Positions 14,424-15,308 of a DNA stretch of 64,000 nt are shown here, piece after piece; position 1 is the stretch's first letter; each line of letters opens with the position of its first letter. The translations under genes and the position numbers were made by a program. Origin of the DNA: Actinomycetota bacterium (GTDB taxonomy: Bacteria > Actinomycetota > Humimicrobiia > Humimicrobiales > Humimicrobiaceae); contig JAYEJA010000040.1 in the NCBI GenBank assembly GCA_034660395.1, positions 4,434 through 68,433 on the forward strand, in the 5' to 3' direction. Under the pieces are notes generated by a model. It saw only the letters and a list, made by a program, of their open reading frames with translations. It was not told the origin of the DNA and ran no database searches.

Positions 14424-15105
14424 TAAAACAAGTTTTTTAGATATTCTAAAAGATATCATCACACCGCCGCTGTGTGCTGTTTGTGGTAATATTGAACCTG
14501 CATTACTATGCGACCAATGTTTATCCGGAATTAACAGGATTGGTGATAATGTGTGCAGTTATTGCGGCAGGCCTTTACCAGCGGATGAGAAAAGCGGCGT
14601 GAGATGCAATTTCTGCAGGATAGATAATTTTAATTTTTACAGGCACAGAAGTTTTGCCGTTTACAGCGGAGGAATAAAAAAGATAATAAAAAAGTACAAA
14701 TATGATAGGATATATGCATTAAAGAAGATTATCAGCATATTCTTTAAGAAAATATATGTTAAAAACTACAAATATGAAAAAATAGATTATCTGGAAACAG
14801 TCCCGGGAATGCATATGGAAATGATTTGTGAATCGTTGTCAGGGTTAATTAAAATTCCATTTATTGGTAATATAATAAGGATAAAGAAAATTTTAAAACA
14901 GCAGGGTCTAGATTTTAACCAGAGAAAAAATAATATAAGAAATGCCTTTAAAGTCAGGAATTGCCTGGTATATTCCGGTAAAAATATCCTTGTTATAGAT
15001 GATGTCTGGACTACCGGGAGTACGTTGACCGAAATTTCTGGTGTCTTAAAAAAGGCAGGTGCTGAAAGGGTTTATCTATTAACTCTGGCAAGGGGGTTAA
15101 AATAA
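14395..15105 (+). CDS. ComF-like phosphoribosyltransferase-domain protein with an N-terminal double zinc ribbon
   Basis: CAVCG..CDQC..CSYCG..CNFC cysteine pairs. C-terminal [12 protein letters not shown] PRTase motif. Confidence 0.7.
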
Positions 15106-15308
15106 AAAAGTCCAGGTTAAAGGGAAAAGTAAAATGGTTCAGCCCGGAAAACGGGTTTGGATTTATAGCGGCGGAATCCGAGGGCAATGGGGATATTTTT
15201 GTAAGGTATTCTTCCATACAGATGGACGGGTTCAAGTCACTTAAAGAGGGACAGAAGGTTGAGTTTGAATTGGATAAAGATGAAAGGGGATATGTTGCAA
15301 AAAAGGTA
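15102..15308 (+). CDS. Cold-shock protein (CspA family). It is absent from the ORF track because there is no canonical start. The putative start is the AUA at 15102; the codon immediately upstream of GKVKWF is TTA.
   Basis: Frame-0 translation [63 protein letters not shown] is an unmistakable cold-shock domain (RNP1 KGFGFI, RNP2 VFVHF-like). SD AGGGGG lies 5 nt upstream of the ATA. There is no ATG/GTG/TTG in frame after the upstream stop at 15063. Confidence 0.6.

Follow-up and report, generated by a model that had tools for sequence, protein, structure and literature searches.

A cold-shock protein gene with a probable AUA start codon overlapping comF in an uncultured actinomycetote

From which codon is a bacterial gene translated when no canonical start codon stands in front of its conserved domain, or is such a gene translated at all? 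This question is raised by csp, a gene for a cold-shock protein that lies directly behind comF in a stretch of 64,000 nucleotides (nt) from an Actinomycetota metagenome-assembled genome (MAG) (assembly GCA_034660395.1, contig JAYEJA010000040.1, positions 4,434 to 68,433 of the forward strand). We refer to this stretch as the window and count positions from its first letter. The reading frame of csp runs from one stop codon (TGA, 15063–15065) to the next (TGA, 15321–15323). The first ATG, GTG or TTG in it is the ATG at 15222, codon 52 of this stop-to-stop frame, and hence the list of open reading frames (ORFs) shows only a fragment of 33 amino acids (aa). The gene caller of the Logan assemblies likewise gives a 33-aa fragment for csp. 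We think it probable that csp is a functional single-domain gene that initiates at AUA, the ATA in the DNA that overlaps the comF stop codon. By comparison with related loci, this AUA would derive from an AUGA overlap through a G-to-A change, and initiation would be aided by a Shine-Dalgarno (SD) sequence as well as by coupling to comF translation.

The frame had been noticed in an initial annotation, which described a cold-shock domain in a frame that opens after the stop at 15063 and in which no ATG, GTG or TTG precedes the domain, so that the ORF track misses the gene. All of this is correct. Its end of the frame is not. At 15306, where the initial annotation placed the stop, the frame reads GTA, and the TAG that begins at 15307 belongs to another frame. 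The csp frame continues to the TGA at 15321–15323 and so gains five residues (VVVVD). The gene is also not unannotated, as had been claimed. GenBank holds the same ORF, begun at ATA, as the 73-aa protein MEA2015531.1 (“MAG: cold-shock protein [Actinomycetota bacterium]”; MKKSRLKG...VVVVD), which is encoded on a contig of 68,764 nt and is the best database match. This GenBank product (P0001) agrees with the csp translation throughout except for the initiator residue. The NCBI annotation pipeline independently picked the ATA in the record of the window and in four other GenBank records.

The predicted product is a single-domain protein of 73 aa that covers nearly the complete cold-shock profile PF00313 (E=7e-23, 80.7 bits at a cut-off of 27), and the NCBIfam models for CspD, CspE and CspA match it at 1e-19 to 1e-24. 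Its scores lie below the equivalog cut-offs of cspD (85.6 bits, cut-off 115.4) and CspE (84.8 bits, cut-off 120). The product is a generic member of the CspA family and is not assigned to any named orthologue (CspA, CspC, CspD or CspE). It contains the motifs GKVKWF, NGFGFI (like ribonucleoprotein motif 1, RNP1) and IFVRY (as DIFVRY; like motif 2, RNP2). The His position of RNP2 is variable across the clade (R, Q, E, N or K). With CspA, CspC, CspD and CspE of Escherichia coli and CspB of Bacillus subtilis it shares the single domain of about 70 aa and the motifs GxVKWF, GFGFI (RNP1) and IFVxY (RNP2-like). What it does not share is the long, free-standing 5′ untranslated region of the cspA type, since the region upstream of csp is comF coding sequence. 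We also considered whether AUA might be reassigned in this organism. This is ruled out, because the same gene still uses ATA for Ile at the invariant Ile of the GFGFI motif.

The start site lies within the last codons of comF. These codons, GCA AGG GGG TTA AAA TAA, hold the ribosome-binding site of csp. As the initial annotation had proposed, a strong SD (AGGGGG) stands five nucleotides before an in-frame ATA at 15102, and this ATA shares the tetranucleotide ATAA with the stop codon of an upstream gene that model TIGR00201 assigns to the ComF family. The spacer between AGGGGG and ATA is TTAAA, and the full SD, AAGGGGGU, lies 4–5 nt upstream of the ATA. When paired with a generic anti-SD sequence, ACCUCCUUU, which we assumed and which may not be that of the host, the full SD is predicted to form 8 base pairs with an energy of −11.0 kcal/mol. 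If AUA initiates, the expected N-terminus of the protein is (f)Met-KKSRLKGKVKWFSPE. The initial annotation had also pointed to an ATG at 15134 in the −1 frame. This ATG exists, but it is no start codon and arises where the codons for the conserved Lys and Trp meet (AAA TGG). The closest relative reads AAG TGG at the same position and hence has no ATG there.

The evidence that carries our reading comes from related loci. Scanning GTDB species genomes with SecA as the anchor, we obtained about 25 of them, all from uncultured Actinomycetota MAGs (Candidatus Humimicrobiaceae / Hydromicrobium-like), and a metagenome scan with Csp added seven further close loci. We aligned the 60–66 nt that precede the GxVKWF codons and took the distances between stop and start from 18 loci; individual loci are given as L numbers. 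In orthologues from about 20 related genomes frame and spacing are unchanged. The comF stop and the csp start are between −4 and +5 nt apart in all 18 aligned loci, and the AGGGGG within the ...ARG codons of comF is conserved across the alignment. In the subgroup with a Csp of 73 aa, the start position is the codon seven positions before GxVKWF. L026/L084 and L003 have ATG there and L090 has GTG, whereas the window, L009, L083, L164 and L165 have ATA. The closest relative is L026/L084 (SecA 89% and Csp 85% identical to the window). The start context in L026 is ...GGCAAGGGGGATAAA ATG AAA ACG, and the overlap in L026/L084 reads ...GGGGGATAAA ATGA AAAC. At the start codon the window differs from L026 by a G-to-A substitution and not by an indel.

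The overlap with comF varies along with the start codon. The tetranucleotide is ATGA only in L026/L084 and L003, where comF ends with TGA; it is ATAA in the window and ATAG in L009, L083, L164 and L165. In the other relatives, whose Csp has 71–72 aa, the start (GTG, ATG or TTG) is displaced downstream by one or two codons. There it follows the comF stop by 2–5 nt or overlaps it by one base (TAGTG). ATA is confined to two lineages, and the other 17 distinct Humimicrobiaceae-like loci have ATG, GTG or TTG. At csp in L009 we found no start candidate other than the ATA.

One further locus, L024 (2645–2995), belongs to a more distant relative. It was considered as a third csp without a start codon and rejected: its start is an ATG at 2699, which stands 4 nt past the stop of comF, and an N-terminal insertion of 28 residues, KEKNYDKIAAGGNNKTNLQGDRVINPDSSEEIFS, separates this start from the cold-shock domain.

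How often did ATA arise? In a neighbor-joining tree from concatenated ComF, HPF and SecA (residues 1–260), the window and L026/L084 group with L090, and L003 groups with L009 and L164. Because the tree places each ATA lineage beside an ATG-bearing locus (L026 and L003, respectively), parsimony favors two independent changes from ATG to ATA. This amounts to two occurrences among the four sampled sub-lineages of the 73-aa subgroup.

A single nucleotide change probably accounts for the present arrangement. The ancestral state would have been the common 4-nt AUGA overlap, in which the UGA stop of comF and the AUG start of csp were interleaved. One G-to-A transition would then have turned AUGA into AUAA, changing the comF stop from UGA to UAA and the csp start from AUG to AUA. 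For the termination of comF this change would be neutral or slightly favorable; UAA is the favored codon among stops (PMC6006363). The AUA would be decoded by the initiator tRNA as formyl-methionine. Although a weak start codon, it would be rescued by the extended, start-proximal SD and by an A-rich context that is predicted to be mostly unpaired. In addition, ribosomes that finish comF would be delivered straight onto the csp start through termination-reinitiation coupling. Where genes overlap by −4 or −1, terminating ribosomes that reinitiate and ribosomes that initiate de novo have been found to have about equal shares (PMC3592434). The ATA would be tolerated in csp because the SD and the delivery of ribosomes from comF keep initiation at AUA adequate. 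We would expect the output of Csp to be lower than that of the ATG orthologues, and to be tied to the translation of comF and to start-codon proofreading by initiation factor 3 (IF3). That the AUA is used, how large the drop in expression is, and how much coupling contributes are what we infer.

Start codons of this kind have been described. Like csp, the genes infC, ccpN and citZ of Staphylococcus aureus and ccpN of B. subtilis have an AUA start behind an extended, start-proximal SD (PMC13009471). Retapamulin ribosome profiling found initiating ribosomes on the AUA of S. aureus infC and ccpN, and reporters for the AUA of ccpN and citZ gave about 10–30% of the AUG output (PMC13009471). The AUA of S. 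aureus citZ is lineage-specific rather than family-wide, and the same is true for csp. There are also differences. The S. aureus starts have been verified by profiling (infC, ccpN) or with reporters (ccpN, citZ), whereas the AUA of csp is proposed from comparison. The AUA of csp, unlike those of S. aureus, overlaps the stop codon of the upstream gene (AUAA), and its host is an uncultured actinomycetote known from Humimicrobiaceae-like MAGs.

One could also argue that the G-to-A change silenced csp and that what we see is a young pseudogene, or a relic that is essentially not translated. In E. coli, initiation at AUA reaches only about 1–2% (0.02–3%) of that at AUG (10.1101/063800). For comF the change is neutral, and it could have been fixed by drift or by AT-biased mutation (the GC content of the window is 39.5%). 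Still, we consider silencing unlikely, for the following reasons. First, the ORF of 73 codons is intact and has kept all core motifs of the cold-shock domain. Second, the csp genes of the window and L026 differ at 42 nt and 13 aa, which corresponds to a dN/dS (ratio of nonsynonymous to synonymous divergence) of 0.076 at a dS of about 1.26. Judged against outgroups, the replacements split roughly evenly between the two branches, and they leave the core motifs undamaged. Third, ATA has persisted through speciation. L009 and L164, two different species-level genomes, have ATA in common, and between them csp shows 17 nt differences but only 6 aa differences (dN 0.041, dS 0.29, dN/dS 0.14). If about 75% of random changes are nonsynonymous, the binomial probability of at most 6 nonsynonymous changes among 17 is P=6e-4. 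Judging from these substitutions, csp in the L009/L164 lineage has stayed under purifying selection while carrying an ATA start, from which we argue that AUA works as a start. Fourth, the strong SD has been kept or slightly improved. Fifth, the 10–30% of AUG output in S. aureus was reached by AUA starts that, as in csp, are backed by an SD.

Functional initiation at AUA has its own difficulties, and several observations weigh against it. The case for the use of AUA is a comparative one. The low efficiency of AUA in E. coli fits poorly with proteins that, like Csp, are usually abundant. Pairwise dN/dS values do not isolate the branch of the window, and dN/dS by itself would be compatible with a recent loss of expression. 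In L083, one of the ATA loci, Trp is replaced by Cys in the conserved KWF motif and hpf is split, which could be decay or a poor assembly; the Trp replacement also speaks for silencing. Finally, the SD is not much stronger than that of a relative with ATG. Purifying selection acts weakly on AUG starts, and where a start is suboptimal the SD tends to compensate for it (PMC5622118). With the same generic anti-SD, the predicted duplex of the window is indeed the strongest in the 73-aa subgroup (−10.3 kcal/mol in L026 and −6.3 kcal/mol in L003), but one extra base pair over L026 makes SD compensation for the weak start unconvincing. RNA folding predicts the A-rich stretch from SD to start to be 0.75 unpaired in the window vs 0.38 in L026. 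We dropped openness as a distinguishing feature, because L003, which has ATG, is predicted to be just as open.

The changes in L083 (GCA_028717125.1, JAQUOJ010000010.1, 1501–2566) are a TGG that has become TGT in csp and an hpf that is divided into ORFs of 125 aa and 104 aa. In L164 and L165, which are nearly identical to L083, the Trp and hpf are intact. The changes are either assembly errors in the MAG or local decay.

Initiation at AUA is not the only way in which csp could be translated. Ribosomes could start elsewhere, either at the near-cognate codons AAG (15108), AGG (15114) or AAG (15120), which differ from a start codon by a single mismatch, or at the ATG at 15222, which is the choice of gene callers restricted to ATG, GTG and TTG. 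The 33-aa fragment that starts at 15222 would be left without either RNP motif and with less than half of the β-barrel. The AAG and AGG codons lie 11–23 nt from the SD, and in E. coli codons that are neither AUG, GUG or UUG nor AUA, AUC, AUU or CUG, among them AAG and AGG, give 0.1–1% of AUG initiation (10.1101/063800). Only the ATA combines the correct SD spacing with orthology to real starts, and we therefore regard initiation elsewhere as very improbable.

The initial annotation left open whether the gene initiates at AUA or whether a 1-nt indel hides an ATG-initiated gene. Runs of A and G abound at this locus (GGGGG, AAAA, AAAAAA), as would suit a sequencing or assembly error. Nevertheless, an exact-protein look-up of the neighboring hpf located two Logan assemblies, each from a run of its own (SRR26901925 and SRR26901928), that are 100% identical to the window over 14950–15410 (461 nt). 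The frame, length and spacing of csp equal those of its orthologues, and ATA recurs in four assemblies of a second lineage. A start at the ATG at 15134 would moreover remove the conserved GKVKW. Because three assemblies agree base for base and the orthologues keep frame and length, an indel is refuted, and we give next to no credence to any other artefact, such as a miscall. Of the two options of the initial annotation it is the AUA start that the orthologues back. It had named a canonical start at the equivalent position in orthologues as a sign of an artefact; such a start exists (ATG), yet what it reveals is a point substitution in the start codon.

Just as hard to believe is that tRNA-Lys slips by −1 on A-AAA-UAA and thereby joins Csp to ComF, which would make a start codon for csp unnecessary: in TTA AAA TAA the P-site AAA can re-pair at −1 (15099–15101) so that ATA is the next codon in frame 0, but apart from the window only L026 has the sequence A-AAA-UAA (L009/L164 have ATA CAA TAG, L003 ATA CCA TGA), relatives have a clear ATG or GTG with SD at the same place, we found no stimulatory structure and an Rfam scan of 13000–19000 (E≤1) returned no match to a cspA thermoregulator, leader, frameshift element or any other family, and no homologue that we retrieved is a fusion of ComF and a cold-shock domain, nearly all having 64–76 aa (one has 116 aa and one 40 aa).

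Returning to initiation at AUA, how does csp compare with the classical cases? The AUU starts of E. coli infC and pcnB belong to a class in which an AUH codon (AUA, AUC or AUU) limits translation and is subject to discrimination by IF3, and we propose the same class for csp. The infC start lies 3 nt past the stop of the upstream gene, and coupling and de novo initiation both contribute to its translation (PMC3592434). In contrast to csp, the AUU of infC is conserved and part of a demonstrated autoregulatory loop; the AUA of csp is sporadic and occurs in two lineages whose sisters have ATG or GTG. Conservation of the non-canonical codon across orthologues, as in infC, is not what we find for csp, and a dedicated regulatory role of its AUA would be hypothetical. 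At the level of sequence, csp does bear every mark of a non-canonical start: its frame offers no canonical alternative, the ATA is orthologous to real starts, an SD precedes it, and the ORF is under selection.

The overlap resembles that of coupled AUGA gene pairs (PMC6728339, PMC12548453, PMC3592434). Like these pairs, comF and csp are co-directional and overlap by 4 nt, and L026 and L003 have AUGA itself. The literature calls AUGA the sole possible −4 overlap (PMC3592434), whereas we find AUAA in the window and AUAG in L009/L164. The comF-csp locus is a natural test case for reinitiation at AUAA and AUAG, variants that lie outside current treatments of the −4 overlap.

The ATA of csp is no artefact, and as a start codon it would be an exception of a kind that is already known, in a gene that NCBI has already annotated from ATA; it leaves established principles unchanged. 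It does illustrate a conflict between the two signals in an ATGA overlap, where one transition that is harmless to the upstream stop weakens the downstream start. Since ATA arose twice in four sampled 73-aa sub-lineages, our results suggest relaxed selection on the start codon where a strong SD and termination-reinitiation supply ribosomes. There is also a practical aspect. Gene callers limited to ATG, GTG and TTG truncate csp to 33 aa and mis-size the ribosomal protein L21, so that in these MAGs start codons need to be called with homologues as anchors.

The gene for L21, rplU, is the second gene of the window without a canonical start. An ATT at 53969 stands at the Met of the universal N-terminus MYAII, 5–6 nt behind a GGAGGA SD. 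This ATT and its SD recur in three further species of the clade (L166/L167 at about 352–354, L168 at about 313–315 and L169 at about 229–231), and more distant relatives have Met at this position. To judge from this comparison, rplU, a ribosomal protein gene, seems to have a conserved AUU start. Gene callers give L21 lengths of 84–127 aa across the clade, and the GenBank L21 of the same MAG (P0071, 101 aa) begins at an ATT four codons downstream. An exact look-up of the ATT-started L21 of 105 aa found it absent from the protein collection. A mini-ORF in front of rplU, ATG GAG GAC TAA, was considered as an upstream ORF or a frameshifted start and rejected, as it is the SD (AUGGAGGA) read as codons. 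Orthologues carry TTGGAGGA or AGGGAGGA in its place.

Two of the roughly 60 genes in the window have a putative AUH start, the conserved AUU of rplU and the sporadic AUA of csp. A tblastn search did not find infC in the window. One could speculate that AUH starts in this clade are a recurrent, selected device on translation genes, acting through IF3 or upstream coupling, or that the initiation machinery of the clade discriminates unusually weakly against AUH. On the sequences at hand we consider this rather unlikely. If it were true, rplU and csp would be what one window shows of a pattern that runs through the whole lineage.

Downstream of csp lie hpf and, from 16002, secA (Table 1). Related loci share the order NTP-transferase, comF, csp, hpf, secA. 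Because a promoter and terminator scan found no terminator-like site between comF and secA, comF, csp, hpf and secA probably form one operon. The same scan saw 18 promoter-like sites where 9.8±3.2 are expected in AT-rich DNA, but none that would convincingly give csp a promoter separate from that of comF. One of these sites lies inside comF, within a stretch (14842–14876, forward strand, GTTAATTAAAATTCCATTTATTGGTAATATAAT) whose DNA sequence hardly varies among 18 related loci. Going by sequence, it may be an internal promoter for csp, hpf and secA. The invariance could equally be explained by codon bias together with a conserved ComF motif.

Table 1. Coordinates of the features discussed, in positions of the window.
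Feature	Coordinates	Strand	Remarks
comF (ComF family: double zinc ribbon and phosphoribosyltransferase domain)	14395–15105	+	ORF list; Pfam DZR_2, Pribosyltran; NCBIfam TIGR00201; stop TAA 15103–15105
Promoter-like site TTAAAA-16 nt-TATAAT	14849–14876	+	within comF, some 225 nt ahead of the ATA
Extended SD AAGGGGGT	15090–15097	+	inside comF coding sequence; includes AGGGGG 15091–15096
csp coding sequence	15102–15323	+	73 codons and stop TGA 15321–15323; translation
ATA, putative csp start	15102–15104	+	overlaps comF TAA as ATAA, 4-nt overlap
Cold-shock domain (Pfam PF00313)	15120–15314	+	residues 19–83 of the translation from 15066; profile positions 2–65 of 66
Out-of-frame ATG	15134–15136	+	junction of AAA TGG; opens a 36-aa ORF out of the cold-shock domain frame
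hpf (long ribosome hibernation promoting factor)	15404–15973	+	own AGGAGG SD; 80 nt downstream of csp
rplU (L21) region	53951–54286	+	coding 53969–54286; ATT 53969–53971

Two other sites in the window are worth mentioning. The gene for release factor 2, prfB (18627–19731, forward strand), has the classic programmed +1 frameshift: a frame of 22 codons starts at the ATG at 18627 and ends in CTT TGA (18693–18698), and the body with the PCRF and RF-1 domains follows in the +1 frame up to 19731, its first 60 codons being without a start codon. Between 33290 and 33941, stop-free frames on both strands yield tRNA-like peptides (e.g., GFEPPTHG). The letters of this region indicate that tRNA genes are clustered in the 1.1 kb that separate the ORF ending at 33246 from the ORF starting at 34385.

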